This document shows, in pieces, positions 11,266 to 43,000 of a stretch of DNA of 64,000 bases; within the stretch, counting starts at the first letter, position 1; each line of letters starts with the position of its first letter. Source of the stretch: Ascidiella aspersa (taxonomy: Eukaryota); contig OZ004610.1 of NCBI GenBank assembly GCA_963924565.1, positions 8,246,001-8,310,000 of the forward strand, written 5' to 3'. The notes beneath the pieces are model-generated. The model had not been told where the DNA came from and did not search any database. It worked only from the letters and a program-made list of their open reading frames with translations. Position numbers and translations under genes: made by a program.

Positions 11266-12934
11266 ATGGAGGAATTGTCCTGTCCAAGATGTCGAATGAC
11301 GAAATACAGAAACCCGGCCCTACAGTTGATGATAAATGCTTGTGGACACCCTCTTTGCAAATCCTGTGTCGACGTTATTTTTGTGAGAGAGTCTGCCCCG
11401 TGTCCTGAATGTGGCCGCTCACTACGCCGAGGCGGCTTCAGAACTCAGCTGTTTGAAGACACAAGTAAGGAATTCCAATATTAAAAGCGGTAATATTGTG
11501 CGATTTGGACTTTTGTATTGTTATTATATTAAGTGCCCTATATGGATGATCTGCAAATAAGCTAACTTTTGAAATTTTAATCAGCCTAGCTTTGTAAAAC
11601 GTTTTAAACATGTTTTTATTTTTAGCTTGTATTGTAATTTCTATAGCAAGTTAAAAAGTATGCTGTTAAACAACCTAATTTTTTCTTATATATATTTATT
11701 TTAAACTCCACTCTGGACCAATTGTTAAACTTCTATAAACTTGTTTTAATTAGACTTCAGTATTCAATATTCCAATATCCATGTACATCCAAGCAAAAAA
11801 CATAACTACCTGCTACCATTTTATTGAACAGGAGTTGACAAGGAAGTAGACATAAGGAAGATGGTTATGAAAATCTACAACAAACTTGAATCTGATTTCG
11901 GTACTCTGCGAGAATACAATGACTACCTGGAGGAGGTTGAAGAAATTATTTGGGACTTAGAAATGGGGAGGAACGAAAAAGAAACAAAAGAAAAAATGGC
12001 TGAATATAAGTGCGTTGTTCTGTGGGTCGCGATTAATTCAACAATCCTCAAAATTCACCATAATCAAAAAACAAAAAAATATTTAATAGTGTTTTGGCTT
12101 TATTTAGGTGTAGTCTACTTTGATAGCTTTTTTCTTGTCATTTTCTTGTCACAACCACAAACCGATATATATGACTATTTATAAGTATGCATGTCATTTA
12201 CCATGGAACGTGCGATAAAATAGCTTGTTTAATTTCTCAAACCTTCGATCCTGTAAACATCAATACAAATCCCATGAACTGTTTGCTTGAAAAAAAGCCG
12301 ATTTAATGATCGCCTATATATCGCTCATCAGATTGTTTTAATTCAATGTGTGTCATTTTCCAGGCAAAACAATGAGGCAGTCATCCGTCGCAACCAAGTT
12401 CGCTTCAACCAGGAGCGAGCGTTCTTTCGGGACTCCATGGCCCGCGAGGCCAAAGAGAAGCAAGTTCGCGCCCAAATGCAAACCAAGCTGGACAAAGAGG
12501 CGGCCGAGGCTCGTCGCAAAGTCGAAGAAGAATTCCTCCGCGATCTCAAGTCGAATTCGCACCTCACAGCAGAAGAACTACTGGAAAGAAGGCGCCAATT
12601 CGAAGCGGAACAGGACAGCAAGCTGCTGGAAGTAAAAACAGCCGATATCGACGCCTACGTACATTCCGACCCTATGGACTCGGAATCTACCGGTAGTGCT
12701 GTACAGCAGCCTACGCAGTTCGTTTACGAGGCTGCTACTGTCGATATTTCGGGCCCAGAACTTCCCGATTCCAGAGAGATTCGCGACAACGGTTACATGC
12801 GTAATATAAGGGAGGCCACGCTGCGCGACGTCGGCGGCGGCTACACCAGCCTTATGACGTGTCAAAGGGCCCTTTGTGACGCGTTCGGCGGCCTGTTCGC
12901 GACCCCGGAAAGCGCGGCAAACGGCGTTGTTTGA
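11266..12934 (+). CDS. MNAT1: CDK-activating kinase assembly factor MAT1 (TFIIH). Exons 11266-11464, 11832-12009, 12364-12934
   Basis: N-terminal [16 protein letters not shown]...[10 protein letters not shown]...CPEC, then [15 protein letters not shown]...IYNKLESDF...[15 protein letters not shown] and C-terminal GYMRNIR...[21 protein letters not shown]. Junctions are GT-AG and in phase. Confidence 0.95.
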
Positions 12935-19030: not shown

Positions 19031-22000
19031 ATGTTTAAAAACCAGCTGGTACGCAGGGTAAGTAAAAAGTCACTATAGTTGTTACACGGCCAGAAAAAGT
19101 TAAAAGCCCGGTTTTAGAATTGCAACTAAATAAAAGCTACAGTCCGCTGCTCGTTTTAAATCATTTTAACATTTCCAAGCGTTTATTTCGACTATTTTAA
19201 GCGGAGAGCTTCGTTGTGTTGCGATAGCACTCTAAACGGCTTGGAGTTTCCTTAATTAGGCCTGAATTTCCTGCCAGAAAATAAGTATAAATGCTGTGGC
19301 GACTGGGAAATTTAACTGTGTATTAGCTCTGTTGGGAAGTTAACTAGCGTAAAAACTGAATTTTACTGTTTTCTGTTTTGAGTTGGGTTACCATGCAAAC
19401 TTCACGTTGGATTTAAAAGTAAGATCAATGTTTTCTGCGTTGTTAGCTGTAACCTCTTCGGCAGATATATTTGCGGACCGGTTCTCTTTAATAGAACGTA
19501 GCACATATACCTTGTTACGTAGCTGCTATTGAATGATTAATAAATACATTACGAAATACCAGTAATGATTTATTATGCACGTTGACAACGGAAAGGCATA
19601 TCGTCTTACATGCAAGCCCTATTGTAAAATACTGCAATTTTTCCTCTTTGTGTCAGGGCTTTGTCTTTGCTTAAATAACTTTCGCCGAAGTTTAAATAAA
19701 GTGCTGCTTTTTACCATTAGGATGAGGCAAACATTGTGCATTGTGCGTGGGCGCAAGCGGAACTTTTCCGGGTATTCCTGCTAGGGTATTTCCCAAAGGG
19801 ACTGTGCTGAAAGATAAGTAAACAGCTTCGTCCGGTTAGGTTTGATAAATGTTGGTTTACCTGCGTTGCAAATTGCCATACGAGTTAGTCGGAAATAAGT
19901 TCGATTGGAAGTTTGGTGAATTTAATATGATTGCCAATCTTAACTTTTACTGCCTTAGCGTGTAAACGGCAGATGTTCCTGTTTAAAACTGTGCCATGCA
20001 GCTGAAGAATAGGCGCAACATATTTGAGGCATTTCCTAGAAATTCGTTTAACATTTCAACGTATGTTTTTATTAGAAAGGTCATCTATCACGATTGTGTT
20101 TTGGTACAATGCTAAAGTCAGTAGTGCTTCCAGTAGTGCTTACACCGAAAACGCTAAAACTGGCATAATGGAGAGGTAGTACAGACTACTGTGAGGAATT
20201 GCGACTTTTCCGAGATATACGTTTTATTGAACAGTACCCATTTTTACAGCCAGCAGAACATTGCTTAAATTATTACTTTATAAACTTTGTCGCTGGCGTG
20301 CATATACTTAAACTAAAAGTAAATAGGCACACACCAAGCCAGGGGCAACCTTTTTCTAGTCGCGGGCCAAAACCAAACTCAGAAAGGTCTCCGCGGGCCG
20401 CACAAAATGATAACTAAGAATTGTGTTATTTTCATGTTAGAACAACTGTGAATCAGCCGGGCCTCGCGGATCGTTTTTGCCCTTAAAATGTATTTAATTA
20501 CGTTTACGGAGGTCGTCATCCATACTTCTAATAAAAGTGTAATAAAATAATTTTAGGAAACGCGATAACAAGTTAATCTAGGTCGGTGTTTGTTAGTTTT
20601 GAAGTCAAGACCCACCTGGCGAGCGAAGCGAGTGCGATTTTTGTAGGGTATTCTGGCATTTCTTGCAAGTTTTTATTACATTGCCGAAAATAAAAAAGAA
20701 TGTTAACAAATATATCTCCAACATTTTAAATACGTTTTCCGTGACGCACTTAGCGGCCTTCCACGGCGCAACGGTAAAAAAGCGTTGATCTTGGTGAAAA
20801 CACAGCAGCAAAACGTAAACAAACAGGACGTAGAGAGGTGGTTCGCGCGAAGCGCGAAAATTTTTTGCACTTACGTAGTTAAAATAGTGAATAAGTATGT
20901 GAAATCGACTCGTGTGTTGTATGTTGCATGTAGAAAATCACAAGCAATTGTATATTTCTAAAAACGGACATTTTTCGACAACTCTGATTTAGTTTTTTTC
21001 GAAAAAATGGTAAAAATATCGGTGGGATTGCGATTGCTACACAAAACTGTGTCCGCAGGCTGGCGATCAAAATAAGATATCATTGCTTCTGTTTTTCCAA
21101 AAGACGCAAACAAAACAATGTTAGCAGTTCCACGCAAACATGTTTCCAAAGAGTGAGGCGTTACTTGGCTTTTTTGATTCCTTTGTTAGGAGCCTTGCTC
21201 CTAAGTAACGTGACACACTCCATTATACTAACGTTCTTTGTCCGCGTATCAGGTTCTCCACGCTCCTGAATTGCTATCGCCGTTGGTAAGAGCAAACTGC
21301 AACAAGATATATCCCGAAAATAAATTTTCGGCCCATATAAATAGCAGTGTTGCACTGACTTAAGTCAACGACTTGACTTAAGGACTTGATTTAAGTGCTT
21401 AAGTCATTGTTTTCAAATGGAAAGCCTTGGACTTAAGTCTTTGAGTCATTAAGGTTTTTATTTACAATTTTATCATAAAATTGAGCTATTTGCGTATGTT
21501 TTGCACATAAAACGATTAGAATGCAGGATTTTGTTTTTTTTGTAATTTTGTTGTTGAATTTTTGCTTATAATCGGACGAGTTTACCTATTTAAAGGTTTA
21601 TCGCTTTATTTTTATATTAGTGGTCATAACATAGCCCTTTTAAGAAATTTTAAGGAATATTATCAATTAACCGTTGTGTGAATTATGAGAATTGTCAATC
21701 TGTAAGCTTTATTCGTCAACAATGACATTTGATTGGAAATGTGTTTGTGCTGTTAAACCAAAAGTGGCCTCAAGGTGTCAACTAGTTTAGTAAATGCTTA
21801 AGTGGTCATGTTTTACCTTATATTTCTATGTATTTATTTGTATACTAAAGGTAATTCATAGTGTTTGTGGGTTAGGCAAGGTCGCAGTTACGGTGTATCC
21901 CAGTTATAAGGTCCTTTGTTTTAATCAAGGTTTATCTTGAAACTTAAATTAGCCTATAAAGTGGTTCACAACCATTAAAATGTGACCAACAGATTTTTCT

Positions 22001-25000
22001 CTTTTTGAAGCAATTGCAAAACGCAAGCCATTATTTGGCAACTATAGCCTAACTTACCGTCCATATAACGAATATTTTAGTTGATATCAGCAAATTTGTT
22101 GTACTATCTATAATACTATGGTGCTGTGATAGCACCGCTAGTGTCGCAAGTGTGGGATTTTACTACTACCGTACAATGATTAATTACAAGAACATGAATG
22201 TTTAAAGCTTGAGTTTTATTACGCTTACATGCACACGGCAGGTTATGCGTGCAACGAATCAGGCACGATACGATACGTTGGTAGATATGTGGTTTTCATC
22301 GGAACTGGAAGGGCCTACCTAGTTTGCATACTTACGCTTAATTTAAAGATTTCTCCAATGTGGAAATATAACTGATATTCAAATGTTAAAACGAAAATTA
22401 AGGAACGCGACAGTTATGGTGTTGCGATTTACGATAATGCCTTTGTTAACACAGCGATTATCCTTGGTGTGGTAGACATAGAGCACAAATTGCGAAATCT
22501 TTTTTAGCATTTACGTCATTGCAACTACCCACTCTATTTGTGTTACCAATATTATTTTTACAAAAACACAAATATACACCGAAGCCTGTTTTGCGCCAAC
22601 GTTTCCCCGAACTGACTGGTCCAGCCTCTTAGCTTTTCCTCACTGTACTGTACGCACAAACGCGGAAGTGTGATGTAACAAACGGTAATTGTTTTATACA
22701 GGTCGCTCGTGTTGTAAGGCTGACAAAAGCTGAATTGTTTGTGTGTGCATGTGTGACCAATGCAAGGATAACGTGTGGAGAAAGAGTAAAAACAGCTGGA
22801 GCAATGAAGGAAGACTACGTGGCCCTAGCATTCTCAAAATGCATTGGCCGGGCGCTACCCTGTTATAGCAGGAAAGGCAATGTTTTGATGGTCCCCATCC
22901 GATTTATACAAAATGTGAGTACTATTGCTAATTGTGTATATTTACTTTTGTTTTTGTTTCGCAATTCTTACCGTGGCCTAATTTACTTTAAAATACGTTT
23001 GTCCAATAGGAATATTTGTGCTTTATCCAAATGTTAATTATTTGTTTTTAAAACAATTTAAGTCTGCACTGGTTTACAAGATAAGTGACAATTTTGTAGT
23101 AAAGTATATTTTTATTTTGTGTTGGACATGTAGTTCAGTTGTATTTGTATTTTGGCAGTTACGGTAATTTAACGGAGGCGAAACTTATAATAATTGTCCT
23201 ATACACTCGGTAACTTGAAAAGCATGTACAAAAGTACCAATGGTAATGTTCATATTACGTCGATAATAAATACCTAGCTGTAAAACTCTGTAAAAATTAG
23301 ATTAATATTAATAACTTTATCCGCATGCAACAAAAATAACTCCTTTGTTTAGAAACTTTAGCACGAAACTGTTGCTATTGTTGCCCATCGTGCATTCCAA
23401 ATCAAGCAGTTTCGTTTACTTGGTTAACTATCCGCTTACCAAACTTGGCGAAAACAGTACGTTTAAAGTTGTCAGCCACAGTCCTCAGTTAAACTTACAG
23501 CTATAAGGTAACTTTACAGCTAGGCTTCACAAGTGTAAGCTAAACTGTAGCTGTATGAATACTAGTAGAGCAACAGCGTTCCGCCTAACGTAACCGTTTT
23601 TATAAAGATAGCTTTCAACTGAAGTCGTGCGGAACTATGCTCTCACCAACAACGCACATACACACGCGCGCGTTTGTGCACGCTTGACTACACGCACTCG
23701 CGCTTAGCGTATGCCGTTTACACTGGCATCGATAGGCCTTCCACACACACCGAACAACTATAGGATTTCGGGTTCTTTTTAGTTCGTGTGATTACAGTAT
23801 GCACAGGTAGAGAGGAGGCACCAAACCAGTCTTGGTACAATACAGTGGGTGGTATGACGCGTTTGCAAAACGTTGAATGGTCGACTGGTTTTGCGAAGGT
23901 TCTGGTTACATGTTGAAAAAAAGCAGTTTAAGATTCGACGAGCGCCACTCGAACGCTTAAGGCACAAGTCTTTGATCGTGCAGTGTTTGCCGTTGTAACG
24001 TAGTATGTCCTGTTAAGCGACTGGACTAAGAAATAACAAAACTACAGATTGACAAAATTGGGATCATAGCATGTTTTGTTATTTTACAAGAGCAATAACC
24101 GGTAGACTACTGTCGGAGATAAAGTGAATTGTTTAATGAAAACTTACACAAATTGGTTTAAGAACGCATACACGTTTATATTTAGCTGTTATTGCTTATG
24201 GCGTCTAAATTTCCTAATCGTTCTAATGAATCCGCTTGGAAACATTAACCTTTACATTTGAGCTTAAATGTGTTGCCGCAGGGCATTTGTAGACAAGAGA
24301 CCCATTATAATGGCTGTGGCATGACGCACAAAGCGATTGGCAAGACAGGCATTATGACGTAATACAATGCAACGCGATAACGCCAGCTTGAAGATCATGT
24401 GATCACTGATCGCGACCAAGCGAAACCTCGTCTCCCGCGTATTTGCACTCGTTCGACTGAGTACATCCGTGTATTGTTAATGGCTTACTAGTGCTGGCCG
24501 ACTCGCTTGCTTAACAATAGAAGGAGGAAATTGCTCATGCCGTTTAGCGCCAAAATATTGTAAAGCGCGGTTAGATAAGACAGCTGTGCTGCTGCGTTGT
24601 TTGGCAACAACATGTTGATCGATATTGACCAAAGTGCCAATCGAACAGCTTCTAATTTAATGTTTACCCAGACTCTGTTATTGCAAGTAACATTGGAATT
24701 AACAACATTTTGAAGTATACATTACTAGAATTTTGATGCAATAGTTTTAGCTTCATATAGCAGTTAAGGAATTCTGTTGGAAGTCGTTATGATTTGGTAA
24801 TCGTAAATTCGTAATATTTCCACCAAGCAGTCGACACTTCGGGATGTAGTGATGGAGTTTAATGGTGCTTTTCGTTTAAATGTACACGTACTTACTAAAG
24901 CTTTTAAAAAAATTTATTGTACAAATTGTAGTTCTTATTTGTTTAAAGTTTGCACACTATTAGACAAACCACATTTCAATCTAAGTTATGCGTTAATAAA

Positions 25001-28000
25001 TAAATCACCTACGTTGTTATTTTATAGTTGAGTTTTAAAATCAGTGTTTTCTGCAAAATGTTTGCCAAACACAGCAAGTATGTCTCGAAAAGGGACGTAT
25101 TCAAAATCACGACATTGTTAAAGAATTATATTTAAAGTAAAGTCAGATTCTGCACAATTGTTGACTTGAAGTGTTGGGTTAAAGCAGTGCTTTCCGACCA
25201 GTGGGTCGCGACCTATTGGTGAGCCGCGAAGCTACTTTAGGTGGGTCGCGAAGTATCTCTCACTGTTACAGTTTTCTATTATATCGGGAAATTACTGCAT
25301 TACCATTATGTAACATTTATGCATCAATATCACAAAAACGTAACAATTATATGTGTTATGTCGCATTACCTATTTCACTATGTACGCCAATAGTAAAGAT
25401 GCAGGTTTTATGTAACTTTTTACCTCCTTGTGGTTCGCACAATAAACCTTGCATTAAAACTGGGTCGCGAATTGAAAAGATTGGAAAGCACTGTGTTAAA
25501 GGATATAGATCATACTTTACTGAGAAGTCATTTGAACACGTTATTTGTTATAATCCGCGTAGTTTATAAACATAACTTATTTTAAATGACAAGCAAGAAA
25601 TGCCTGTTTGTTTGTTTGTTTGTTTGTTTGTTTGTTTGTTTGTTTGTTTGTTTATGCCGTTTTGATTTGTAATATTGTCGCAAAATGTTTCTGTTTCGCG
25701 TAGTAAGAATATCAACGCCCATGTGGAATTAATATTTATTCACTTTAACATAGAGATAAAAAATGCTACCTACTTCCAGATGGGCTTTAATCTTTTTACT
25801 ACGTCTAACTACAACCCTTCAACAATTATGCAAGTTTCTACTCCTGTTTATCGTATCAATCAATTTTGATCAATTCAAGTATTTTCCGTTTGACATGACA
25901 AAAGTTTTGCCCCTTATAAAAATGTTTGACTTAGTTTATGATTGTACGAACTTTACAGTTAAGTTTAGTTACGCTTGGTCTGTTTGGTTTAACGTATAAA
26001 ACCACTTGCAGCAAAACGTATCACTAATTGTTATAAGCTAAAAGGTAGCCCAAAAACATGAAACATAAATACGTAAACCGACTTTTGATTTTATATAAAA
26101 CCTTGGTTTTCATGTTAGCAGTTCAATGTTAAATTTTCTCGATGAATTTTCAACACGTTGAACAATTGAAATGGAATTAACATAGCGGTATTCGATTAAA
26201 CAACTGTCTGTGATTTTGATCGTCTTGTTCGGGATACATTTTACCACTTTTGTTACCTTTCTAGGTAATTTTTCCCCATTGGGAACTAAACTCTCTTGAA
26301 ACCACCTTGTCGGAGCGTATGGAAACGCATACATTGATGTCCAAAGAAGTAAGGAGTCTTAATTATTGGTTAAAGTCGTATAGTTATGATGGAATACACG
26401 ACCAAAGCGACAACGTAATCAATGGTAGGACTCAACGTAAATATCCAGTTTTGCAAGACGGAGACAAAGGATGCCCTATTGAAGAAGCAAAGGTTTGACC
26501 ATTGCTAAATGCCAAGATTAAAAATGCAGTACTTGCTTTTTATTTATATGAAACTTCACAAGAGAAGTCGCTGAGACAATTTAATTAGATTATTTGTAGG
26601 TGACTGCAAGTTGGTAACGAGATTTAAATCAAAATCGGTTTGTGTTAAATATTACACCTTGCATTATTGCATATTAAATCTAGGCTAAATCAAGATGCCT
26701 TTTTCAACCAAATCAACGGTTTTAGTATTTTTTGTTATACTTTTTAATTTCATGAAAAGTTCTTGGAATATTTTATCTAGTACAGGTACAGCACAGTATT
26801 GTAATCTTACTACTATAACATAATCGAATTGCTTATTTTTCTGCTCATTCCACGGTATAAAGCTTAGTGCCTTTTTGCTTTGGGCTAGGATAATGTAAAA
26901 TTTGATCTCTTCTACTTTTGTGAATGTCTATTCAATTAAGTCCATTCTTGTAAACTGCATGTTATCTGTATGAAAGTTTTATTAGTATACTTATAAATTA
27001 GTTTGTTCAAGTTTTGCAAATATTTATGAAATTACTTCTATGTTGACAAACTTGACAAATTAAAATCACAACTATAGATAGTTAAGGTAATGTATTAATA
27101 CCTTATTTGGTAATGTATTATTTCTTTATAAAAGTATGTACTTAACTAATGGAATGTGCTGTGAAGCAACAGAAAACACTTCACATACATATAGTCAAGC
27201 GTTTATTTGTAGTAACCACTTTTAATTAATACTATCAAAACAGATGAAAGAGCAAAGGTTTTTTATCTATGATTTATGTGCACCTTTTAATACCTAACAT
27301 TTTACTATATTCTTGATAAAAATTATTTTTTTTATCAAACAAACTTGCGAACCGTTAAAAACATAGTTTGCTAAAATATTATTTTACCTTACTGCGTGAT
27401 ACAAATTGTTGCTTTTTATTTACTTAATAAAAATAGTTTCATTCTTTTCCAGGAGTTTTTCGAAAATTGTTTATCGATTGTTGACAAAAAAGTGAACGTC
27501 GCCTCGACAATTAAAACCACGAAAGAGCAATCATCATTACCACAGAAGGAACCCCCAAGACTAGAGGATCGAGTCAAGTTTAAAAACACCTTTAGCGAGG
27601 GGGTTGCTGATTCGACAAAGCGAGATTCAAACTTGACCAAATCTTCAAGGTGGGATCAGAAACCCGATGATCTATTGACGTCAGAAAAGGAAAACTCCGT
27701 GACGTCAATCGACAAGTTGATTGCCAAGCAACGGCGGATCGCCAGCGAAAACCAGCCACAGGAAGTTTTGGAAGACTACTCTAGTTCGGACGCTGAGCAT
27801 CAAAAGAGCTGCGTGAATCGAACTACTCGGAGTAACGCGGACCCCGTCGCATCCTCACCGACTAACGAGACATTGAGTAGTTCTTCGAGTTCGGAGTCGT
27901 CCGCTAAGCGTGGGCCGCGGTCAAGAATTCGCTTCTCACGACGCGAGTCTGAAAGTTCCTCAAGTTCATCGTCGAACGCTTCAGATCCTGATTCCGTCTC

Positions 28001-31000
28001 AAACAAGAAGTTCAGGAGAAAACGGAAGCAAAAAAGACGCTCACTGCGAAGCAAACTTAGTGGGCTAAACAACCTTGAAAGCAACCGCTCAAGTTCGAGC
28101 TCAGACGCATCTGTCAATCCAACTCAAAACAGTCCAAGGTTTGCTAGACAGAGAACAGTCACGCTTCTCAAACCTGTGAGACGTTCGCACAGCTACAGTT
28201 CGACTTCGTTCGACTCTAACACGGATACAAACAGCGACATTTCTGAGCCGGCTGTAGCGGGCAACGGAGCATTTTCTAAACGAACGCATTCTGCGCAGAT
28301 TCCACATAGTCCGCCACGTCAATCAACCCCTACTTCGGACAAGCCTAAAAGCCCACGTTTTCCTGGAGTCCAGCAACGCGTTGTTCGTAGACTGATAGGT
28401 TTGAATATGGGCACTAGCAGTGATGAATCGCAGTCGGAAGCTGACACATCTCGTTCAACTGAGTTTGACACAACCTCTAGCGTAAAAAACTCTGCACCTG
28501 ACAACTCATTCAACCCTCAACAGACCCCAAATACCTCGTCCCTGCAGCCTGATATGATTTCGTCTACCTCGGGTGGTGCATTGACGGCAGCAAACTACGG
28601 TCAATCCAACACGTATCCGTTCAACATGATGAAGGTTCCGGTTCTGCTGACTCCGTGGCCGCTCATATACAGTGGAATGAACCAGCAGCCGCCATACGCC
28701 CTGCCTCAATGTCAAGTCGTGCCCAGCAAACAGTCACTCCCATCTGCCATGCCCATGTTATGCACTCAATCGCTGCCAGACAACAGCTTGAGCACGGTAC
28801 CGTCCATTAGCCAACCAGCAGTACTTGCTGCACCGAAAGCAGAAGCAATTCAGCAGCGTCAGCAAAAGCTAATTGGCAATAACGCTGGCTCAAAGAGAAA
28901 CAGCTCTGAGTTAGACAACCCTGACGCTGACTGGACACAGTCGAATGACGAAAATACACGCGGGCTGCTGAAAGTTAATGCCAACAACAACAACACATCC
29001 GCCCGTTTAGCAGCGCAAGTAACAATGTTCAAGTCACAGCAGTTCGTTATCAGCGATGACGCACTATTGTGCAAAAAGCCTGAAAGCAAAGTTCCTAAGC
29101 GCAACGCAGCGAACAAGCAACAGGAGGCTGCTGAATTGGGCGCATATTGCATAGAGAGCAATTCATTAACTGCACACAATGGCGGCGGCGCACTGACAGC
29201 GCCAGAGGCTATATTAAGCGCGTCGCTAGGTTCATCGATCGCACAATACTCTCGTTCAGTTTGCACTGACGCCAACCACAAACAGGAAAAGGCAAGCCAC
29301 CGTCGTTCCTCGCTCGACAGTGCTGCCTATTCTCATAGCAATGCTAGCGCCGATGACATGTTAACAGCTGGAGACGACGCCCAGGCTGCCGACTGTCAGA
29401 AAGCGAGAAACAGGATCAGCGAAAGCTTTATATTGCAGAGCCTGGCCAAGCCAAAAAGCTCGCGACAAAGGTTGGTTGAAATAGTCGACAAGTTAGCGCA
29501 GGAATCGGCCGAGTTCAATGAGGTGCTTTCCGACTGGAATATACCGGATTACTTTAACAGGGAACTGTCAGTTAAAGCAACGAGCCGCTCTGATGAATCA
29601 CGCACGCTGCGAATGACGGAATTTGATCGCAGTTACAAGCACCGTCATTTCAGCTCGCAAAGAAACACCGAGTACGAAAGGAATAGTCGCCCATACAACG
29701 GGTACCGCTCGTCTTCGAGCCAGGAAAGGTCGAGCAAAGGTTCGAGTGTTGAAAAACGACAAGTTCGCGTTGCAGAGAAGGCTTCCAGCCCGGTCGAAAG
29801 AAAGCTGGCGACTTTTGTCAAGTCTTCCAACCTTTCGGAGCTCATTATTTCTATTCGACAGTCGGTACAGGTTAAGGAGATGTCCAGCGATTCGTCGTCG
29901 GAACACTGGAATTCCGACGTGGAAGACATCAGCGACACTTCGCTTTCGTGCAGTGACTGGGAGACTTCGCCTTTGCGGAATACGACCTTGGACTGTATAA
30001 ATGCCGATTTGATTGGGGGTAATGCTGAAACCTGTTCGTGGCCTTTTGAGGACGAGTCCGCATCCTGGGACTTTGATGTCTTCGGCATTTTGCTGGAAAT
30101 TGACCAGAAGTCAACAAAGAAAGCAGATGTTTTTAAAGTAGCGCAACCTATGGAAGTGAACAGCCAGTCCAGCACTTCAGTCAAGCAAAAACTAATCGAT
30201 GTCCCAGTAAGCAACAGCCTTACTCATACGACTAGTCCGACTCCTGTCGTTTCCAGAGATGCTTCATTTGCTAATCCAATACCAAAGAAGCCTTCCACAG
30301 TTAAACAGACACTGCTTACCCCTTCTGCCCACATTGCACCGAAACTTTCCAAAATTACTGGATTCGAAAGTGCTTTGCAAAATAAATTGAACACTCCAGC
30401 CGCAAAACCTCAAGGTTCTTCTGTTAGCCCTAAGTCAGCACAGAGAGCAAAGGTGTCCCGTGTGTCTTTGCCTAAAGGCCACATCTCTAAAACAGTAACG
30501 AATGCCGGCAAAGCCTCGTCAGTTGCAATAATCAGTAAGGAAAACCTTAACCAACCAGCATCAGGTGTAATTTCTAACCCAAAGCCTGTTTTACAAGCTG
30601 AGAATTCGAATCTTGCCAAAAAGACTGCTGTGCCGAAGACTGGTGGTAATACATCTTTGGCAAAACTTTCAAGTACTATTTCCAATAATACAACACAACT
30701 AAAAGGCCCAATTACGTGTGCAGTAAAACAGTCAACGACTTCTGTGACTAGGGCTATGGATTTAGGACACAAATCGGGTACAACCGTAAAGGCACCGGCA
30801 TCCTCAACAGCAGATGCTGGTACAACGTCACCATCGAAAAAAAGGCCTCAACACGTTTCTATCAAACAACCGACCGCAATAGCTTCTTTGACGCAAGGTA
30901 GCATCCCATTTTTACAAGCTACAAGTTCTCACACTTGCAACGCAGATGTCACAGTTACACAATTTAATATTGAGTTGTCTGACAAGGTTGAAAGAAGTTC

Positions 31001-34000
31001 GGCGGGCGAGGTAAGCGCAATTTCAGATTCTGTTGAGAAAGTTCAAGTTTATACAAGCACAGAGTCGCCAAATCTCGGGCAACTTAGTTCGGTGCTCAAA
31101 ACAACCCTAGTTTCTGCGAGCACAGCTTTAAAAAAGCGTGAGCAACCTAGTTCGTTTTCCGAGAAAGTTCCTATTTCAATTTCGAATAAGGTTGACAAAC
31201 GTTTATCCATGTCCGACAAAGCTATAGTTACAACAAGTACAGTTTCGAAACTGCCAACTTCAGAGTGCGACATCCATTCAATCCAAGTCAACATCGAGGA
31301 TGTCAAGTCGGCGATTTGCACAGCGGTACAGAAAAGAATGAAAAGCGCCGATTTGGGGACCGACGAAAGGTTCAAGACACGCAAATCAACTGTTGATGTT
31401 CTGACATGCCCGAAGACTGCAGAAGCTTTGCCAACGGTGAAACCTAAAAGTACAAAGGTTGATAACAAAGTTAAACTAGCCAAGAGTTTTGCTGCAGTCG
31501 AGGAAGTAAGTTCGAGTTGCACGGAAAACACCATTGACACCATCGAAAAACTTTTAGTACCCTCGTTTAACGATACAAGGAAGCCGAAGCAAGGGTTGGA
31601 CGAAAATGAAAATGAAAGTAAGGAAGTTGAGTCAGAAAAATTGAGTAGCGGAGCCAAATCAATTCTACCCAACGTTACATCAACAGACAACACAACTACA
31701 CTTCCAACGTCTGATGTCACGGAGCAAACGAGCACAAATACGCCAATGGATTATTTGGGTAACAAAAAAGTCGAAAATTCTCCAGCACGAAGAGAAACAG
31801 ATCAGACTAAAATAAGTGACATGAACGGCAAGGAAGAAGAATGCTCGTTGAAATTAGACAATTTCTCGATGGAAACTGTAAAGGGTTCTACCGAAACTAA
31901 AACCGAACCTTTGGTAAAGATATGTCCAGCAGATTCGACCAAGGTAATACACGACCCTGAACTAGAGCAGGCCAAAGATACCATTAATAAAGGACCTTGT
32001 AACACTACAGATGCTGTTTATATTCAAGACGAACCCAACTTGTTGAAGAAAGGAAACAAAGAACAATCCGTTGATCTCGAAGTTAACCTCAGCGACGCAA
32101 ACAATAGATTTTGTGCATTTGACAAGACGCTATCTAATCTAAAAGCGGGTAACCAGATTCCAATTTCGAATGCAAACTGCGACCTTAGCGAAATGCAAAC
32201 CGCGATTCCTAAAGTTGTGACCAAACAATCGTGGAAAAAGAAACTGCTCGAGAAGGCCATTGTACAAAGCAGCGACTTGGTGGCTGTGGAAGAAATTAAT
32301 CGAATAAGGTTACAGCTTTTGCTCAATAAACCTAAACAACAAAGTGAAAACAATGACACCAACCTTAGTAAGGAACAAGGACCAGTTGATTCACCTAAGA
32401 CAGTGTTATCAAATGACGCATTTGTTGAAGAAGTCCACGATTTTTCGTTTGACTCTGAGGTGAAAACAGTCGAAGTTCAAACCAGTCCAGTAGAATCTGA
32501 AGAACTGCCAGAGAAGCAACAAAGCAACGAAACAAGTTGCACCATGCCAGTAGATTTCACACAACACTGTAGAACGTCGATTGACGAAGACGAAAACCTA
32601 AATATTTGTATTTCTGACGCCACTGTGGAAGTCGCCAACTCCCTTGAAATTGAGTCGGACATCGCCTGTTGTCTTGAAGTTCAATCAGAATGTTTGAATA
32701 CCGTTGAAACAGGATCGGTTGTCAAAGAAGCTTCGGCGAAACCACCACCTTTTAAACCCCAGCCTGTACTTCACAACAAGATTAACTCTGTAAGCAATAG
32801 ATTTCAAAATACCAACAAAACTGGCAAAGAAAAGTCAAAAGGCGTAAAGCGAAAGTCCACCGTAATCAAGAAATCCACAAAAGGCCAGAGACCTGGCCCG
32901 GTAGTTTCAACTGGATCCGCCAAACGTGCAAAGCTCCCCAAACTATCGTCTGCTTCCAATCCACCATCTAAAGCCGACTGCGAGGCATCGTCCGACGTCA
33001 ACGTTAGTTTTCCACGCTTGGTATTAACTCGCTCCAACATGGAAAAGCTTAACAAAGCCCCGAAACCTGCTAAAACGATTCCAACTAAGCCGCTGAGAAA
33101 CCAGACAAAACAGAATCCCCAGGTTTCAAAAACCAAATCTAGCCTTGTCCAGATCGCTGCTAGTAAGTCCTCTACCAGCACGTCAACGCCCGGCAATCTT
33201 GTGACTCACTCCAGTTCAACAACATCAAGAAATCAGCGCCCAAAGGTGATTGTACCCACTCCGAAATCTCCGCTGTCGTTCTCTAAAAAAGACCCACAAA
33301 TATCAGCAACTTCAGCGAATATTGCCGCACCGTCGAGCCATCGAAAAAACCAACAGGTTTCCAGACCTCAAGAAGTGGAAAGTTCAACAAAAGATGAAAA
33401 ATACCCCAATTTACCACAAGATTCTGCAAAAACCGTGACACCATCTTCTAAAGAAAAGCGGCAGAAAGTTCAAAAGTCAAATAAAGCGGACTTTACCACC
33501 AAGGCTTTTGTGGATGATGCAACCTCAACTAAGATCACTTTGCCTTCGAACAAACGTCCTGACATCGTTTCGTCGTACCCGGACATTGTTGTTTCTACGA
33601 CAAATCAAAACATTCAGCCAAAGCAGCCAGCCGTAAAGTCGAACTTGATCGAAACTAAGCAGCTTTCAATTGTGCTTTCCGATCTCAAGACGGCGCGCAA
33701 TTGCAAGCATGAGAAGATGTACCGAGCCGCAACGAAACGCAAGCCTCTGCCTTCTATTTCTTCTGAGGACGAGGAAGATACACCGGCGACTGATTGTTTG
33801 CTGGATCAAGCTTCTCTGATCGCCCCGACGATCGAAGAAGACGAAGATGATGAGGTTGTGTTCGTGTCCGTTCTGTCCAATAAGAATTGGAAGGAAACTG
33901 TTCTCGGAGTCGAACGGACAACTTCGGACGAGAACCAGGTAAGTCTTGTATGTCCTAACCTGATTTGGTCTGTTTCCTAACATCGATTTTTGATATTTCA

Positions 34001-37000
34001 ATACGATGTTATACGTTAGTTTTCAGTGCGTTTACGAACGTACTGTAACTGAACAAAAGCGCTGAAGCATTGCATTACTTTTTTGTCTGACAAGTTTATG
34101 CAATCACCAGCACGTAGGGTACGGACGTACTGATATCCTTTATGATCACAATGTATTTTAAGTACCAATCGACCATAACGTAGAAAGGCATAATGATCAG
34201 TTTTCTTACCCGGTGTACGGTGTCACTATAACCATGTGTGATGTATTTATTTAGTACATGCTTACGACCAAAAGCAATAAACCTGAGATGAAAATATCTA
34301 CGCTAAGTGTACACGTCATATGGATGTATGCCACAAAAATCTGCAATAAAGATTTTAAACATTTGAAGTAGTGTTTGATATTATTACACGGGAAATATAA
34401 AGACGTATAATTTATACATTCTAAATACCTGTGTCTCATGTAGCATTTCAACATACATATAGCATGTACGCTATTACTTCATGATAAATGATTGTTGCAT
34501 AATGCAATAGTGTGCAGTAACAGTAAACACGATCCGTAACGTTACCTATAAATATTTAAGACCTTTCTATTGCATAATTGTATTTAAGTCAAACTGTTTG
34601 TATTAAACAAGGAAATGAGTTATGAACCATGACAAAGAGTTAACTGTTAAATTGTTTGTTGAACTGTTACGTTTATCTATTTTGCTAGGATGCAAAAAAG
34701 GGGGTTGAAGACAAAACGACTATTTGCGACAAACTTTACAAGTCTGAAGACGTTAAACCTGATATTGAAGTTAAGCAACCTTTTCAAGTTGTCGAGAAAG
34801 CGAAGACAAAAACAACGGACGAAGATTTACCAAAAAAATCGAACAAGGATGAGGTAGTATTTGATTTACTCAAACTCTTTTCAAAGTCCTTTAATACTTC
34901 TTTTAATAAGGTCAAAGAGGTGAATATCGTTCCAGCTGAGTTGAATAAGGCATCAACCGATGTTGAGATGCCTTTGCCTGAACCAAAAACTTCATGTATT
35001 GAAGCAACATTTCAAAGTCGGATAAATGACGATTCTTCGAAAAACAATGGTTTGTTATACGTTTAGAAAACGCCGTAAAACGTTTAAAAAAGTTTTAAAA
35101 CTGATTTATATAGTGCATTAGGATGTGAAACAAAATTTGATCATAATTTTATATAATTTTAATTTTGCTACACAAGTTTATATTTTGCTTCGCGTCTTTT
35201 TAATATCGAAGCCCATACGATTTTCGTCTTACTCAACTGTAACAAGGGTTCATACATATCTTAATGCGATTACTATTGACAAAGCAAGGATATTCATGTG
35301 AATTGATCAACCTTCTTTTAAAACATCAACCTATTTCCGTATTTTTAAACATCAATGTCTTACCAGGGCCATCTAAACAACCGCTATCAACAAGTACAGC
35401 TGAACTTCCAAAGGTGTCAGCTGCAAACGAAGAACAAAAAGAAGCTTCAGAAGGCTGCAAATCAACTTTACAGCTCAGTGACAGTTCAAAAAACAAACAC
35501 GACTTGTCGGTCGCAGAGTCAGTACCTTCTCTATCCTCTACCAAAACGGCAAGCAAAACCGTTTCGCCCAACGACAGTTCTATTGAAAAACAGGACTTGT
35601 CAGTGACCACGTCAAAATGTGATCCGACCGCTACAGAAACGCCAAGCACTAGTAGTCAAAGTAGTTTACCAAGTGCAGAGAAAGCCTTGAACCAGGCGAA
35701 ACCTTCAGTTAAACCTAGCACAGCATCAGCTGACCCACGATTTCAGTCGTTAAACCCTCACAGCAATTGTTACCACGGCATCGTCGAAGTGGAATTACAC
35801 GCGCCGCGAAAGTTCCTCAAAGGCGGAAAGTGGACTCACACCAAGAAAAAAATGTTCAGGAAACGAAGAATCGCCTATTCCCAAGTGAAGCTGCAACGGA
35901 ACCCCGAAAATTGCAACAACTGCGCCAGCAATTCGTCCAACCTACCGCGCCATCTTGACGTCTCATTGTTGCGTATTCGTGACGTCGCCTTTCTGCTGGC
36001 CTGTGACGTCAAGGCCTTTGTGGCGTATCTGATTTCGCAAAAGATACGCATGTTTCGACCAGACCCGTTTACGCGCCAAGCGTATGAGAATATCTACGAT
36101 CCTGTGGCCCAAACGAACTCGCATATCAAGTCAAAGATGGGATTCAACGAGGAAAAACCGGATCCTGATGCAACGGAGAATCAAATGATTTACATGGAGG
36201 ACCTTTTGAGGTTGATCCTTCCGGTAAGTAGCTGATATGAAACGTTGGTAAACACTTACTTGGAAACTGTTAAGTTATTGCCTAACTTGAGTTCTGATAA
36301 ATTTCTACAAAGTAATATAGTGATGGCACGCGAACAATTGTTTTTTTTTTCATTTGACCATTGTAAAACAATACACAAACTTGGGCTTGGGTAGGGTTTA
36401 AATTTGGTAGTTTATCTGCATATTTTTTAACAAAAAGTAAATGTTGACATCCATGATCCGTAACATAGAACGGAATTTTGGAGATAAGAGTTGGTTGCTT
36501 GACAATAATAAACGAAAGTAAAATGATAGCATATGCTAATATGCACAACTTTGTTATATCCCTGTATTTTATTAACATATACGTTAACTAATTGTAATCT
36601 TACCTTGCCTGACCTTGTGCTGCCTATTGGAATGTAGGATTACGCTATGATATTTTTGCCTATGTGTACGTTACGCATACGTTGTTCATAATTATAATAA
36701 TTGTCGATTAAATCTGTTGACAATCGTTATATATACGTTACGCAACTGCACGTTGTCTATCGGAACGTTACACGATTATGCGTTGTCATCAATACGATAA
36801 GTTTTGTATTGACCACCGTTATATGATACATCACTTAACCATACATTAACAGTCGGTACCCTACCTAATTATACGTTGTTCATAAAAACATTAAGTTTCG
36901 GCTACATGTGTTAATATACGTTATGTAAACGTTACGCGACCATACGTGGTCTGTCGGTATGTTACGCAACCGTACGATGTTCATTCTACTCGGTATGTTA

Positions 37001-40000
37001 CGCAAGATGACGTAAATTACGGTATGTTATCGTTCCTTGCTGAATAATACGTTACGATGCTCAACCATGCATTTGCCCTACAATAGGTGCGCAAGTACCT
37101 ACTGCTTAAATTACCCATCTATAAGTTGCATAATAACTACAAGTTGGCCATCAATTTATGTGACGATACGTTTTCCATCAATACGTTGCGTTATGCGACC
37201 AAACCATGCCTATTGATACGATACCTACATACACTACCAACCCATACGTTTCGGAATCGTAGCATGTTTATTGTTTCGATTTAAACATAAATTGACAATA
37301 TAAGTAAATTTTAAAATGCTGTACATAAGATGCATTCGGAAAAGCTGGCCGATATCTGTCTGTCGATCAGCATTATATTATATGCAAGGTCATGCTAGGA
37401 AAACAACTTATCCGAAGGCATTTTGTGTACTATAATGTTCCGTTATCGTTGACCAGAACGACTCCAGAAGGTCTTGATCACAAAATAAACATTGCGTATG
37501 TGTACGTTTCAGTTTTTGAAAAAATTAATTATTATTTTCTAATAAATTATTTTCAGCATGTTAAATATAACGTCTGTTTCGCGATTTGTTTCAGCAATAC
37601 TTCAAAACACATTTCAACATTGAATCGAAACAGCTTCCGCAATTCGTCAGCGTCAAAACTTACCAGCCGATCAACTATCTCAATCAGGATGTAATAAAGG
37701 TGATTGGTTTGAATTCCTTAATGTTTGTACAATTGATTTAGCAGTAATATGTTAAATATATAGTGTAGGATTTTGAAAGATTTATAAAAAAAACTCGGCG
37801 TTTTAAACTGGGATACTTTAAAAAATAATAATCTAACAAAAACAGATGACATCTTGAAATTACTGTGACTAGTAGTAATAAGCTAACACAATGGCATTCT
37901 CCAAAACGTTGCCCACAATCATTGCACTAAACAAATACAGTGGACTAAACTGCTGTAGAGCGGCACCTCGTCTTTTCCATTGTAAGAGCACAGAGATGAT
38001 GCAACTTCCGTTGTGGCTGTGTTTCTTGCTGCTTGGTATACGAATAAATGAAATGCCCGCTTAGGCTTTTTTATATCCTGATGTACGTCTACAGAACGAA
38101 TATAGAATCGCTTAAAATACTCGTGACGAGGATTTCTGTTTCATTTTTCACATAATGTATTCCACAATGTTGCAAACACTGCATAGAATAGTATTTGTTG
38201 TTGTACTGAATGTGAGGTACTGGTTCCTAATGACCGTTTTTAAATAAGTCCCTTTTATTCTGTAATAGTATTCAGATATTTACTTGTCTGATAGACTTAG
38301 ATATTTACTTATCTAGATCAGTGTTCTTCAAAGTTGTTTTGACGAACTATGCACCCTGTTTACTTAAAAGGTAAACTGAGGTATAAAAAAACAATATAAA
38401 AATCGTTATGCATAGCATATCAATATCATCATGTCAATTAAACCGGGCTGAGATGCCGAAGTGTTACACACTTTTCAGTGAAAGTTTTTTCACTGCAGGC
38501 TGCTTGCAAGTACTATTGCATGTCAGAAAACAGCATTCAAACAAACTTAAAATAGCAAAGAGACTGTTTAATGACTTTTTGTCTACGAATTTGTCAAATA
38601 TTAATGGTTCATTAAAAGTTTGTGATGCACCCTTGTATATTTTTTGTTCTGGTGTTGCCCATGCATGATTTGGTGCAATTCAAATAAGACCGTTAAACTC
38701 TCAACTAAAATTATAATATTAAAGTTACGCAAGAGGCAGTTCGCAGCACATTAAACTTCATTCAGATAACCTATACAAGTTGGCTAAACTTATTTGTTGA
38801 TGACGGACTTGGACAACTATAGATAATTCTATTTTTGTATTTCAATAAACTAAAGAAAAATCCAGCTAATTTTGTAACTCTATAATCTAATTTGTGAATT
38901 GCTTGTGTGCTCTATAGTTCTAATCTAATTCGGATTTTACCAAACTGCAATTTAATCTATCAGTTAAAAAAGAATTTGTTAAAAAAATGTACAACTCTTT
39001 TATCAGGAGGACTTGTAGGTAATTTTTACAGCCTATATAAAGTATAGCCTATGCAAAAAAAAAATGAAAAAAAAAATGAAATGCTCTAATATTAATCCTA
39101 ATCTAATTACAAAAAAGCTTAAATAAATTTAGTTGACCAAGTCGGATTGATGGTCTAAGGTACGGCGCCTTTAGTCTGAAAACGCCAAGATTGGAAGCAT
39201 GCGAAGCGCTAATTTTTTATATTTACGTAGTTAAAGTAAACCAAACTATGGGAAACGGCCCAGTTTGTACATGAGGTTGCGGGCCGACCCCTGGTATATA
39301 TATATAGGATATATTAAATGTTCTTCGGATGTATTCAACTGATTTCTTTTTTTGTCGCAGATGTTCGCCGAATCGTTCGCGTTCAACCAGTTTCTATTCA
39401 ACCAAGACGTTGACTTAAAGACTGAGCCACCCAAGCAGAAGCGAAAGCGGAAAAGCAAAGACCCCACATCTGTTGGTACCGATGTTAAGCAAGCCAAGGT
39501 GGCCAAGGTCGCTCAAGGGCCAAAGCCACCGAGCAGTATAAATCAAGTTGCAAGATCTCCTGTTAAAAATCCACATATTGAAGCTGGGGATATTCCATCC
39601 TCAAGCTCACAGCCAGGCGTTCCAATTGCGGATACCGAAAATATGGTTTTAAATGCAGAAGTTCAACAAGATTTGTCCAGAAAGCAAAATCCAGTAGGGG
39701 CAAGCTTACCTATCGCACCCACCCAATCAGGGAGCTTAAATCAATCCTTGAGCCCACAAACAACCGTCCCAATCCCGAATACCGCCGTTGCGAATCAAGC
39801 AGGACCCAGCCCGTCTCAACTGTTGCTAACGTATTTGGCAGGTTCGACTGCTAATTCAAACCTGCAGGGTGCCAACTTTTCCGCGACGCCACGGTACCAA
39901 GCGGCCGCACTGAACCAGTTCGCCCCGAAACCCTTCGTAACGCTCAAATCTCAACAAGGGGACGGTTCACAACCGCAGCTGGCAGGATTTCCGCCGTACA

Positions 40001-43000
40001 ATGTCCAACACCCCTACTCACCTCAACCCTTTCAGTCGGCTGAAATGCACACCCCTCCTTTGCCCTACGCGCCTTACCAAAATCCTCTGCAGTTCGCCGC
40101 TAACGCGCATCTAATAGGTGGTCAAACGACTGAACAGCACCAGAGCGCCCACCAGTATGGCTATGAGGCTGATCAGGAGCAATTCAGGCTGGCAACGATG
40201 GGAGTTCATCCTTCTCCGGCGCTGCAGCATCTTCGCCAGCAATCTGACAGTCCGTTTTCGGCGGGCAGTCGTCGCAGTTCCACCGAGAGCCTTTCCCTTG
40301 GTGCTAAGTTCGTTCACGGCAACGCGCCCACCCCTCCAACACAGACCAACAACGAACACGATGTCGAAATGCGAATGAAAGCGCTGCTGTTCACCATTCA
40401 GCAGGATGAGCAGTTACAGAATGTAGAAGCGGCCCTTGTAGGACAGCAACAACCGCAGCTTGTACAGCCTCTTGGTCTAGCAAACCACAATCTGGTGCCA
40501 ATTCAACCCAAGCAGTCGCATCTTTTTCGGCCGCACGAGCACCAGTTTAACGGCAACCCGATCCACATGAACCTGAACGGCAACAACAACACAATACTTG
40601 GTCCGAACCCACTCCCAGTCGGGGGATTTCCCCGACCCGCCTCCGATCCCGCCCTTATCGTTTTGTCACGTGACCCCGTGACGTCAGACGGAGCGGTTTC
40701 GAAGGCGGACAGTCCCCGTGGTTTTACTTCGAGTTCTGATGCTACTACGGCTCCTGAAAATGGGGTTCTGGCCATTTCTTCGGTGTACAGCCTCAACGAA
40801 AGCGAATCTGGCTTGAAAACGACATCTGAGTTTCTAACGAAAACGGCCGAGGAAAACGCTGAAGATGATTTGGACCAAAACGAAGAGCAAGGTAAGGAAG
40901 TTTTGCGACAAAAAATAATGGCAAGCGTGTGTCTGCGTGTGAAAATAGCTAGAAACATTTCTGTAAAGATTTGGTTCGATTGAACATTGGTTTTGTCGTG
41001 CAAATAGTTTAGTTTATTTTAAAGTTAATGTTGGTTGCGGTTGATTGTAGTGAAAGTAAAATTTATTGGAAAAATAATAATTTGGGTGTTTGCGTTAGAT
41101 TTAAAATATTGTTCTAGACACTTTACATTTGTTTACTGTTTCTAGACAATTTTACATTTGTTTAAGTATTAAAGCTACCACTTTTTTCAGAAAATTTGGG
41201 TTTTACTTATATTATTTGAGAATTTACGTTGGTTTTTCGTTTGGTGTTTTTAAAATAGTAAATAATACAGTTTGGTTTAAGTGTTGTAAAGTGAACTGTT
41301 AACGTTTTCGATTTCTTTAGGGCGTCGCCGTCAATTGCAAACGTATGTAACCTGGTATTGGGCTTTCGTATGTAATCTGGTGTCGGTTTGAAATTATTTC
41401 ATGGCTCTGCTGTAATTTGGCCCGACTGCTGTTATAAAAAGTGTTGTACAGAAAAAAATGCTTGAAGAAGCCCTGCTCTACGTAATTATTCAACCCGCGT
41501 TACAAAATGTTCTGTCGTTTCGGTAATTTTATGCTCAGGGCTAAACATTTTTCGTTTCCCTTATATACCAAAAATTTTTATCCAACTGTTGAACACCGCA
41601 TCTGATAGTCATACCAAGTTAAGTCCAAATCAAGTCATTTGCCATATAAATGTAACTACTCCTGAACTCGTCCAAAGATTAAAGACATTCTGTTCAATAA
41701 AATTTGTGTGCAATAGTTTTTCTACGTGGAAATCGTGAAGAAAAAATAATCAAACTTTACCAAAATTTATTTAAGCACACTTTATATCTAAGTCAAGTGT
41801 TTTGCCGCGATAACTTCGGTCCAAGTAAAGTTACTTGTACCAAAGATTTAATTTAAGTTAATCCATTTGCAAATAGTAACTTAAGTCATTACAATGCTGC
41901 TTGTTTCCTATGACAACAGCAACTTTACGGCTTCTCCCAGCGCTTAACATGTTTTCGATAATGGCAATTTCTACACCCCTTGTAAAAGGACGTATTTGAT
42001 TTATAACCCGTAGTTTGATATATTGGGAAGTTGTACTATTGGTGATTATGATTTGACGAACAGAAATGTGTAACTGACTGAAACCTAAACGTGTAGTTTA
42101 TCTTGTAGGCTGGGGAAGTTAATTGCGCAAAGAATATCACTTTTTTAAAATATTATAATTTCCCTGGCACAGAGTGCCAAAAAAAAAACACGCTACAATC
42201 AAGTTGTTTTATGAGAGTTAGACATTTACACCGGCCCTGCTGTCCCAAGTTCCCAGACCATTTAATTGGCGGCAATTAATTGTGTTTTCCTGTGTGTAGA
42301 TTCCAACAGCGTGAGCGCTAAAATAGAGGGCCTCGTTCGCCTGTTGCGACCCGACGGTGATTTAGGTACGTGCTAGTAGCGATTGAGGGTTGACTGGCAT
42401 TTTGTCTTCCACACCTTATTAATGTTTGTTCTGCGTGTTGGGCGAAACTGCCAGATTTGTTTTTGCTACCGCGGTCGTCTCTTCTAAACGTACCAGTATA
42501 CCCTCACTTGCTAGTAGTAAAAGTATATTTCTATAGTCATAGAGTAATTTGCATGCGCCTGTAAGTTTATTTGCATGTGAACGAAAATGGAAAGCTGCTT
42601 GCACACTAAATCGGTTATTTTCGATCTTAATTTGCTATTTTTTTAGCTGAAGCTTTTATTTAGCGGCTTGGTTACTTCCTAACTTTGATTTGCATGCGGC
42701 ATTTTTGATACTTGTGCAGACTTTAGCTGCGCATTAACGTTTTTCCCACAGAGAACATTTAACAATATGTTTTTTTTTCGAAATAGAAAGAGACAAAAAA
42801 TGATCTATTAAAATGTTCTTCATATTTTTACCTCGGCTGAGTATGATTAAAATAAACGAAAATTTTCATTGTGATCATATAAACCATCATAGTTTAGCGA
42901 AAAATACAAAAGCACGATTTAAAAAAAATCAATGGTATTTATGTTTTGTTATTTTGTCATCATTCCGACCGCCTTCAAATTGTAAACTGCACATGAATTG

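Follow-up and report, generated by a model that had tools for sequence, protein, structure and literature searches.

What is encoded between positions 22702 and 40983 of this stretch of the Ascidiella aspersa genome (64,000 nucleotides of contig OZ004610.1, below called the window), where a series of open segments on the forward strand seems to add up to one giant protein? A preliminary description, made from the letters alone, had taken the product for an orphan with two folded domains, both SKI/DAC-like, and for a candidate of an undescribed family of transcription or chromatin regulators. Our answer is that the locus is a transcribed gene, found in one copy in its own genome and orthologous to Ciona intestinalis LOC100175079. 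Taken as a whole, the reading that we favour with fair confidence is that of an orthologous gene for a protein of 3,256 residues, with a predicted DHD-like (Dachshund-homology-like) domain in its rear part, which likely serves as a nuclear co-regulator scaffold.

A transcribed gene with an orthologue in Ciona

Seven exons on the plus strand, all with canonical ag/gt ends and in mutually compatible phase, splice by a script join from 22702 into a single frame of 3,290 codons with a lone terminal stop. Translation from the ATG at 22804 gives the 3,256 residues (coding span 22804-40983, plus strand). Since the start of the Ciona protein aligns with this ATG, we read 22702-22803 as probably a 5' untranslated region. 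Exon 1 itself begins at a splice acceptor, and so a CpG-rich stretch at ~20600-20950, 1.8 kb upstream of it, may be a promoter or a non-coding first exon. The RNA depths given below come from one stranded run (X4) carrying the same species label, of which ~6% was read; 383 reads were placed, and joints were listed from 3 reads upwards.

22702..22914, plus strand: exon 1 (ag/gt), with the ATG at 22804 and the first 37 residues of domain A; RNA bin depth 0.45
26265..26492, plus strand: exon 2 (ag/gt), the middle 76 residues of domain A; a single match in the own genome
27453..33938, plus strand: exon 3, a giant exon of 6,486 nucleotides with an open frame of 2,201 residues; domain A ends here with its final 10 residues (to 27482) and is followed by low-complexity linker; RNA depth 0.3-4.2 on the gene strand
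34689..35049, plus strand: exon 4 (ag/gt, phase suiting exon 5), linker; RNA bin depth 0.14
35367..36223, plus strand: exon 5, of which 35768-36223 is the core of domain B, a predicted SKI/SNO/DAC-like winged helix
37595..37699, plus strand: exon 6, 35 residues with the end of helix 4 and the C-terminal extension of domain B; 51% identity to Ciona
39361..40983, plus strand: exon 7, the end of domain B, a KRKRK cluster, a Q/P-rich tail and the stop; RNA depth 1.0-1.5

The segments quoted in the preliminary description are indeed where it had placed them, with canonical splice ends and compatible phase, and its distance of ~2,400 residues between two ordered domains agrees well with the 2,407 that we measure between domain A (residues 1-123) and domain B (residues 2530-2722). 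Order-promoting residues (WCFIYVLM) make up a fraction of 0.39 in domain A and 0.37 in domain B, against 0.23 in the linker and 0.24 in the tail; the stretch between the domains is low-complexity linker and the protein is mostly disordered. It had been said that one domain is split over three exons. This is true of domain A (exons 1-3), but domain B is split over three as well, namely exons 5, 6 and the start of exon 7 at 39361.

All exon-containing bins are covered by RNA on the gene strand, at depths of 0.14-4.2, and three exon-free bins are empty of reads. Two intronic bins (23792-25119) show depths of 0.36-0.45, and repeat-rich intronic bins are higher. The intronic stretches ~25180-25500 and 38320-38670 draw divergent RNA reads on both strands and are probably short dispersed repeats. 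For the junctions 22914-26265 and 26492-27453, on which the preliminary description had built its front domain, the RNA thus speaks for transcription of the exons; but no exon-exon joint reached 3 reads in the ~6% of the run, and the sole joint listed sits in an intronic repeat. Hence the splice junctions rest on homology and not on reads.

This homology is considerable. In a comparison with the N-terminus of the Ciona protein, exon 1 by itself reaches z 3.9 and exon 2 z 7.4, while their join scores z 14.6 (equalled in 0 of 2000 shuffles), which puts junction 22914/26265 beyond chance; when 40 open segments of phase 0 that start after an AG in 22915-27453 were compared, the one at 26265 also ranked first, with a gain of 59 as opposed to 20 for the runner-up. 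Junctions 36223/37595 and 37699/39361 are likewise backed by Ciona, with z 17.4 for exon 6, z 10.3 for the start of exon 7 alone and z 29.8 for the two together, and the introns around the 105-nucleotide exon 6 lie at identical positions in two further species (locus L009; loci L010/L011). The least supported junction is 26492/27453, because adding exon 3 leaves the Ciona score where it was (94 before, 94 after), so that splice signals and frame are its only backing. For exon 4 the comparison gave no homology support.

Could the gene model then be partly wrong, with domain A on a separate transcript, or with domain A not being an independently folded DHD-like domain? The missing RNA junctions, the lack of a homology gain at 26492/27453 and the fact that domain A is known from two lineages only would all agree with such an error. 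However, two Ciona models carry domain A, the linker motifs and domain B in one chain, the phases fit, and the first methionine inside the giant exon comes only ~210 codons in. In our opinion, an error of this kind is quite improbable.

The orphan status, on the contrary, has to be given up. A phmmer search with domain B among 1.84 billion representatives returned eight clusters (E 8.5e-17 to 5.8e-9, 32-39% identity). Seven of these are unnamed exon-sized fragments in which the match ends at a common exon end, and the eighth is Ciona LOC100175079 (XP_018667905.1, XP_026695416.1), a protein of 1,952-1,965 residues named 'uncharacterized'. It has both domains in the same order, and the same linker and tail motifs, in a shorter chain, with a linker of ~1,170 residues as opposed to the 2,407 here; its domain B is 31% identical to that of the window (alignment A2). 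Of 96 pattern matches, five were confirmed; these metagenome loci belong to two further species. The same 105-nucleotide exon 6 is present in all three loci checked (L009, L010, L011), and a giant exon upstream of domain B recurs in L009 and L011 (three long frames seen). As the Ciona orthologue and the loci of further species share domains, motif order and introns, the gene is, judging by these comparisons, a member of a conserved family. In its own genome (308.6 Mb), where the window lies on contig C4, domain B and exon 2 found one match each.

How far the family extends is another matter. A word-based search with the window's domain B among proteins of 271-2000 residues gave no homologue, one with the Ciona domain B among proteins of 1073-3416 residues gave two Ciona proteins only, and one with a domain A profile (A1) gave P0001 and P0002 only. 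Since these searches missed the known matches P0003-P0007, they are weak evidence on the range of the family. A Pfam scan of the seven exon pieces and nine homologues found no family near its cut-off, and sequence searches of the PDB with domain B and with alignments A3 and A2 gave nothing better than E 0.18. A search of the main texts of the literature for the Ciona identifiers, or for this family and architecture, found no paper naming them; Ciona gene tables may have the gene under KH/KY identifiers. Within Pfam and the literature searched, the claim that family and architecture are undescribed therefore holds.

The fold of the two domains

To what class does domain B belong? AlphaFold2 was run on residues 1274-1503 of the Ciona orthologue with an alignment of 12 rows. 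The best of five models has a mean predicted local distance difference test (pLDDT) of 70 and a predicted template-modelling score of 0.68, with a core at 85-95 over residues 81-140 and 151-190. Its elements, namely a hairpin, two helices, a strand, a wing helix, a strand and a helix, fit the DHD-like class, members of which occur in metazoan chromatin proteins, according to passages of PMC4509781. Among 48,161 chains the top structural match is Dachshund (1l8r, Z 8.0, root-mean-square deviation (rmsd) 2.7, 94 of 99 residues) and the second is SnoN (3eq5, Z 7.6, rmsd 3.5, 96 of 102 residues). After the DHD domains come two unrelated-looking chains at Z 5.7 and 5.5, and below these SMARCB1 (Z 4.5-5.2), Mbp1 (4.5), Bqt4, many MerR-type domains and the PUFD domain of BCOR (Z 2.6-2.9). 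A further comparison of the model gave Z 8.4 for SnoN (rmsd 3.1, 95 aligned) and Z 7.5 for Ski (1sbx, rmsd 2.9, 96 aligned). We trust the match because it extends over nearly the whole target domain and because members of a single fold class fill the list. Domain B very probably has a SKI/SNO/DAC-type (DHD-like) winged-helix fold, as far as the modelling goes.

Several points weigh against this assignment. The remaining four of the five models reach a mean pLDDT of 54-59 only; the fold was predicted on the Ciona orthologue, 31% identical, and not on the window's own sequence, for which a single-sequence prediction was set aside at pLDDT 37. The structural search tool itself calls a best Z of 7-8 common. 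A structure search does put DHD domains on top, as the preliminary description had anticipated for this domain, but Foldseek on PDB and BFVD returned nothing for the model at E<=0.001.

This structural similarity does not make domain B a member of the known family (PF02437, Ski_Sno, with DACH1/2, SKI, SnoN, SKOR and SKIDA1). The likeness extends over 94-96 residues at rmsd 2.7-3.5 and includes the wing helix. Domain B differs, however, in showing only 6-10% identity, in having long insertions in its loops, in being extended C-terminally by ~35 residues, and in its position ~2,500 residues into a chain that bears another domain at its N-terminus. The PF02437 profile matches neither the exons nor the nine homologues at E<=1, and it does not match domain B even at E<=10; the CLPQ motif at the junction of strand 2 and helix 1 is absent, with RxRD standing there in 9 of 9 sequences. 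Moreover, the known proteins have loci of their own in this genome: SKI (C4:20783456-20793792) and DACH (C3:25912344-25919604), which were the only PF02437 loci in the genome search, SMARCB1 (C1:25494624-25499580) and DNTTIP1 (C7:8152827-8156537). By these sequence comparisons, domain B is not a PF02437 member. No match for SKOR/SKIDA1 or for BCOR PUFD was seen in the own genome, which does not show their absence.

SMARCB1/PHF10, DNTTIP1 and BCOR PUFD belong to the same fold class as domain B without sequence similarity to it, and their DHD-like domains act as chromatin or partner docking modules, as described in the relevant parts of PMC4509781 and PMC4344507. They differ from the window protein by families that Pfam does not find in the latter (SNF5, PHD, dimerisation, ankyrin), and DNTTIP1 is not among the listed structural matches of the domain B model.

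A quite different assignment was also considered, namely that domain B is a degenerate nucleotidyltransferase with the palm of TENT/poly(A) polymerases. A feature search of the ESM Atlas with the domain from Ciona led to TENT-like clusters (0.90-0.93), and the ten best all belong to one clan. But only 127-143 of 256 features are shared, where true members typically share 170; the invariant columns contain no GS motif, DxD pair or third catalytic Asp; and none of the 50 listed structural rows is a nucleotidyltransferase, the model being a small DHD-like domain. Fold and catalytic motifs do not fit, this reading is largely refuted, and we would be very surprised to see it return.

The situation of domain A is less clear. 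The proposal that both domains have a SKI/DAC-like fold is well carried by domain B (1l8r, 3eq5 and 1sbx, Z 7.5-8.4), while for domain A the signal is weak. Its strand and helix spacing fits the DHD pattern by eye, and its local scores against the own SKI and DACH lie above those of 90 of 90 decoys. What counts against a shared fold is that these pairwise comparisons give z 1.6-2.6 locally (6-41 of 500 shuffles reach the score) and 0.9-3.3 globally, and that hhalign assigns a probability of 0.1% to domain A versus own SKI/DACH and 1% to domain A versus domain B. Neither hhalign nor hmmsearch with own SKI, DACH and SMARCB1 profiles detected domain A; since domain B was missed likewise, these profile tests are blind here. 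No CLPQ motif was found in domain A, and an ESM Atlas search with it gave no usable match. Given its sequence, domain A seems somewhat more apt than not to share the DHD-like fold of domain B. Uncharacterised proteins with two such domains may also occur in insects and molluscs.

Proposed docking and partner recruitment, and the conserved motifs

If domain B has the fold of Dachshund, does it read DNA as a sequence-specific transcription factor, with the long linker as effector region? The idea is attractive. Dachshund is the best structural match, DACH1, DACH2 and SKIDA1 gave motifs by systematic evolution of ligands by exponential enrichment (SELEX) according to an excerpt of PMC13538051, and domain B has four basic residues, all arginines, that do not vary in any of the 9 sequences. 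Yet these arginines are off helix 2, the putative recognition helix: strand 1 carries R38 and R39, and R82 and R84 lie where helix 1 begins. No column of helix 2 is K/R in at least 6 of the 9 sequences, unlike SMARCB1, where helix 2, which in Mbp1 enters the major groove, has conserved R/K residues (in the parts of PMC4509781 concerned). The net charge of domain B is +10 in the window and -1 in Ciona. The bare helix and the negative charge in Ciona together weaken the case for DNA binding, and the placement of the basic residues makes sequence-specific reading doubtful. In the same excerpt of PMC13538051, DNA binding by the DHD-like fold is said to be long disputed, and a motif came from just one of five further SKI/SNO/DAC proteins from humans. 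We regard a factor that reads a DNA motif as improbable here. The domain of DNTTIP1, in the part of PMC4344507 that deals with it, binds both DNA and nucleosomes, with neither a SELEX motif nor CLPQ; by analogy, non-specific chromatin docking of this kind, or docking on a protein, would fit domain B better than sequence reading.

A further view would be that the domains bind proteins only, as BCOR PUFD binds PCGF1 and Bqt4 binds Rap1, and that the gene is possibly a diverged orthologue of BCOR, SKIDA1/SKOR, C15orf39 or RESF1, or belongs to a wider bilaterian family. PUFD and Bqt4 are indeed among the structural matches; no other PUFD, DUF5525 or DUF4617 locus was found in the own genome, where PF02437 is at two loci only; and RESF1/KIAA1551 binds the fibronectin type III (FNIII) domain of ATF7IP, as passages of PMC7706265 describe. 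But the PUFD likeness stands at Z 2.6-2.9 against 7.5-8.4 for DHD domains, and neither the exons nor the Ciona protein contain ankyrin repeats or another Pfam family. BCOR and BCORL1 have ankyrin repeats and a C-terminal PUFD, whereas the window protein has neither, and its domain B is followed by a tail of 534 residues. DUF5525 (C15orf39) and DUF4617 (RESF1) match neither protein nor genome, although these profiles may not reach tunicates; blank genome searches are no proof of absence, since PUFD and DUF4617 matched no control genome and DUF5525 matched one, below the cut-off. We consider this view unlikely, though it deserves more weight than a DNA-reading factor.

The favoured reading, a nuclear co-regulator scaffold, draws on short motifs in the disordered parts as well.

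29907-29945 region (residues 932-944), plus strand: acidic W-x-SD-x-E-x-ISD motif, just upstream of (S/L)WPF; in the window and in the giant exon of L011 (residues 976-988)
30036..30047, plus strand: (S/L)WPF motif, in the same order in the window, Ciona (P0008) and L011
32232..32258, plus strand: WKKxxLEKA motif, conserved in the window, Ciona and L011
33735..33761, plus strand: RKPLPSIS with acidic residues after it, conserved in the window, Ciona and L011
39439-39453, plus strand: KRKRK basic cluster in exon 7, after domain B, possibly a nuclear localisation signal; a cluster also in Ciona
40774..40794, plus strand: IxxVYSL motif in the C-terminal tail, shaped like the FAM that binds ATF7IP FNIII

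Three of the linker motifs keep their order in the window, Ciona and L011. The acidic W-x-SD-x-E-x-ISD motif, which a pattern search did not match in Ciona, presumably resembles the phospho-motifs that bind SPOC domains.

The IxxVYSL motif gives the most precise hint at a partner. We derived the pattern [IV]xx[VI]xSL from the motifs printed for MGA (in PMC12303078) and MBD1 (in PMC7706265); in the portions of these two papers that treat it, the FAM of MGA recruits ATF7IP-SETDB1. The pattern matches once in each of three full-length proteins (the window's, P0008 and P0017), aligned between window and Ciona, and when the tails are shuffled 2000 times, 3.5% and 5.9% of the shuffled sequences contain it. 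An FNIII domain of the ATF7IP type (fn3_4) is encoded in the own genome (62.7 bits, cut-off 27.1, G000:C2:37435566-37439367). On the other side, the pattern appears anywhere in 30% and 16% of whole-protein shuffles, and it was defined after the motif had been noticed and rests on two lineages, which is why we keep it as a lead. It is conceivable from the sequence, if tentative, that IxxVYSL binds ATF7IP FNIII and so would bring SETDB1 and silencing by trimethylation of histone H3 lysine 9 (H3K9me3). Known FAM-bearing partners of ATF7IP (MGA, ZMYM2, ZMYM4, ZNF518A, MBD1) are large nuclear proteins with an [IV]xx[VI]xSL-type motif, as the same portions of PMC12303078 and PMC7706265 have it, and the window protein resembles them in its one conserved copy. 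It differs from them in that Pfam detects no zinc finger, T-box, bHLH or MBD family in it, and FNIII binding is here a candidate property only.

How would such a protein work? Its folded domains would attach it either to chromatin, with no reading of sequence, or to a chromatin complex, in the manner of the DNTTIP1 and SMARCB1 domains, and the short conserved motifs in its disordered parts would recruit partners, the best candidate being IxxVYSL for ATF7IP FNIII. A more ambitious version would make the family an unrecognised one of giant scaffolds, in which two SKI/DAC-like domains on a tether of 1,200-2,400 residues bridge chromatin sites and recruit ATF7IP-SETDB1 through the C-terminal FAM. 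We judge that this full version is unlikely.

Neighbouring features and the interest of the family

The rest of the window contains further features, which we list for completeness.

3486-3920, plus strand: weak CCDC53-like frame (E 0.011, under the cut-off)
6537-7064, minus strand: DUF4518 exon (E 6.4e-10)
9678-10895, plus strand: TTC4/Cns1 with TPR and Wheel domain (E 2e-21)
~11800-12934, plus strand: MNAT1/MAT1 exons (CAK anchor, E 1.9e-18)
57138-61892, minus strand: open frame of 1,585 codons, rich in N, S and Q

TTC4/Cns1 is apparently intronless, as it lies in a single open frame of 406 codons. The frame at 57138-61892 holds ~40 copies of a 51-nucleotide (17-residue) repeat at 58831-60871, with a higher-order period of 303 nucleotides; a Pfam match to UPF0147 in it is probably summed repeat noise, and the frame probably represents a single giant exon from a further disordered protein.

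As to what the family means, some limits are evident: the fold class is already known, the family has so far been named only in Ciona, and its function is proposed only. Nevertheless, the DHD-like fold is known from few metazoan chromatin proteins, and a family that is invisible by sequence, with its basic residues off the helix, offers a new test case for DNA binding. It also suggests that proteins of this kind are missing from inventories of transcription regulators in Ciona, which is a main gene-network model. The Ciona orthologue is amenable to tagging and knockout, and the FAM-like motif provides one precise candidate partner. If true, a two-domain scaffold that recruits ATF7IP-SETDB1 would offer tunicates a way to H3K9me3 silencing that does not depend on KRAB.

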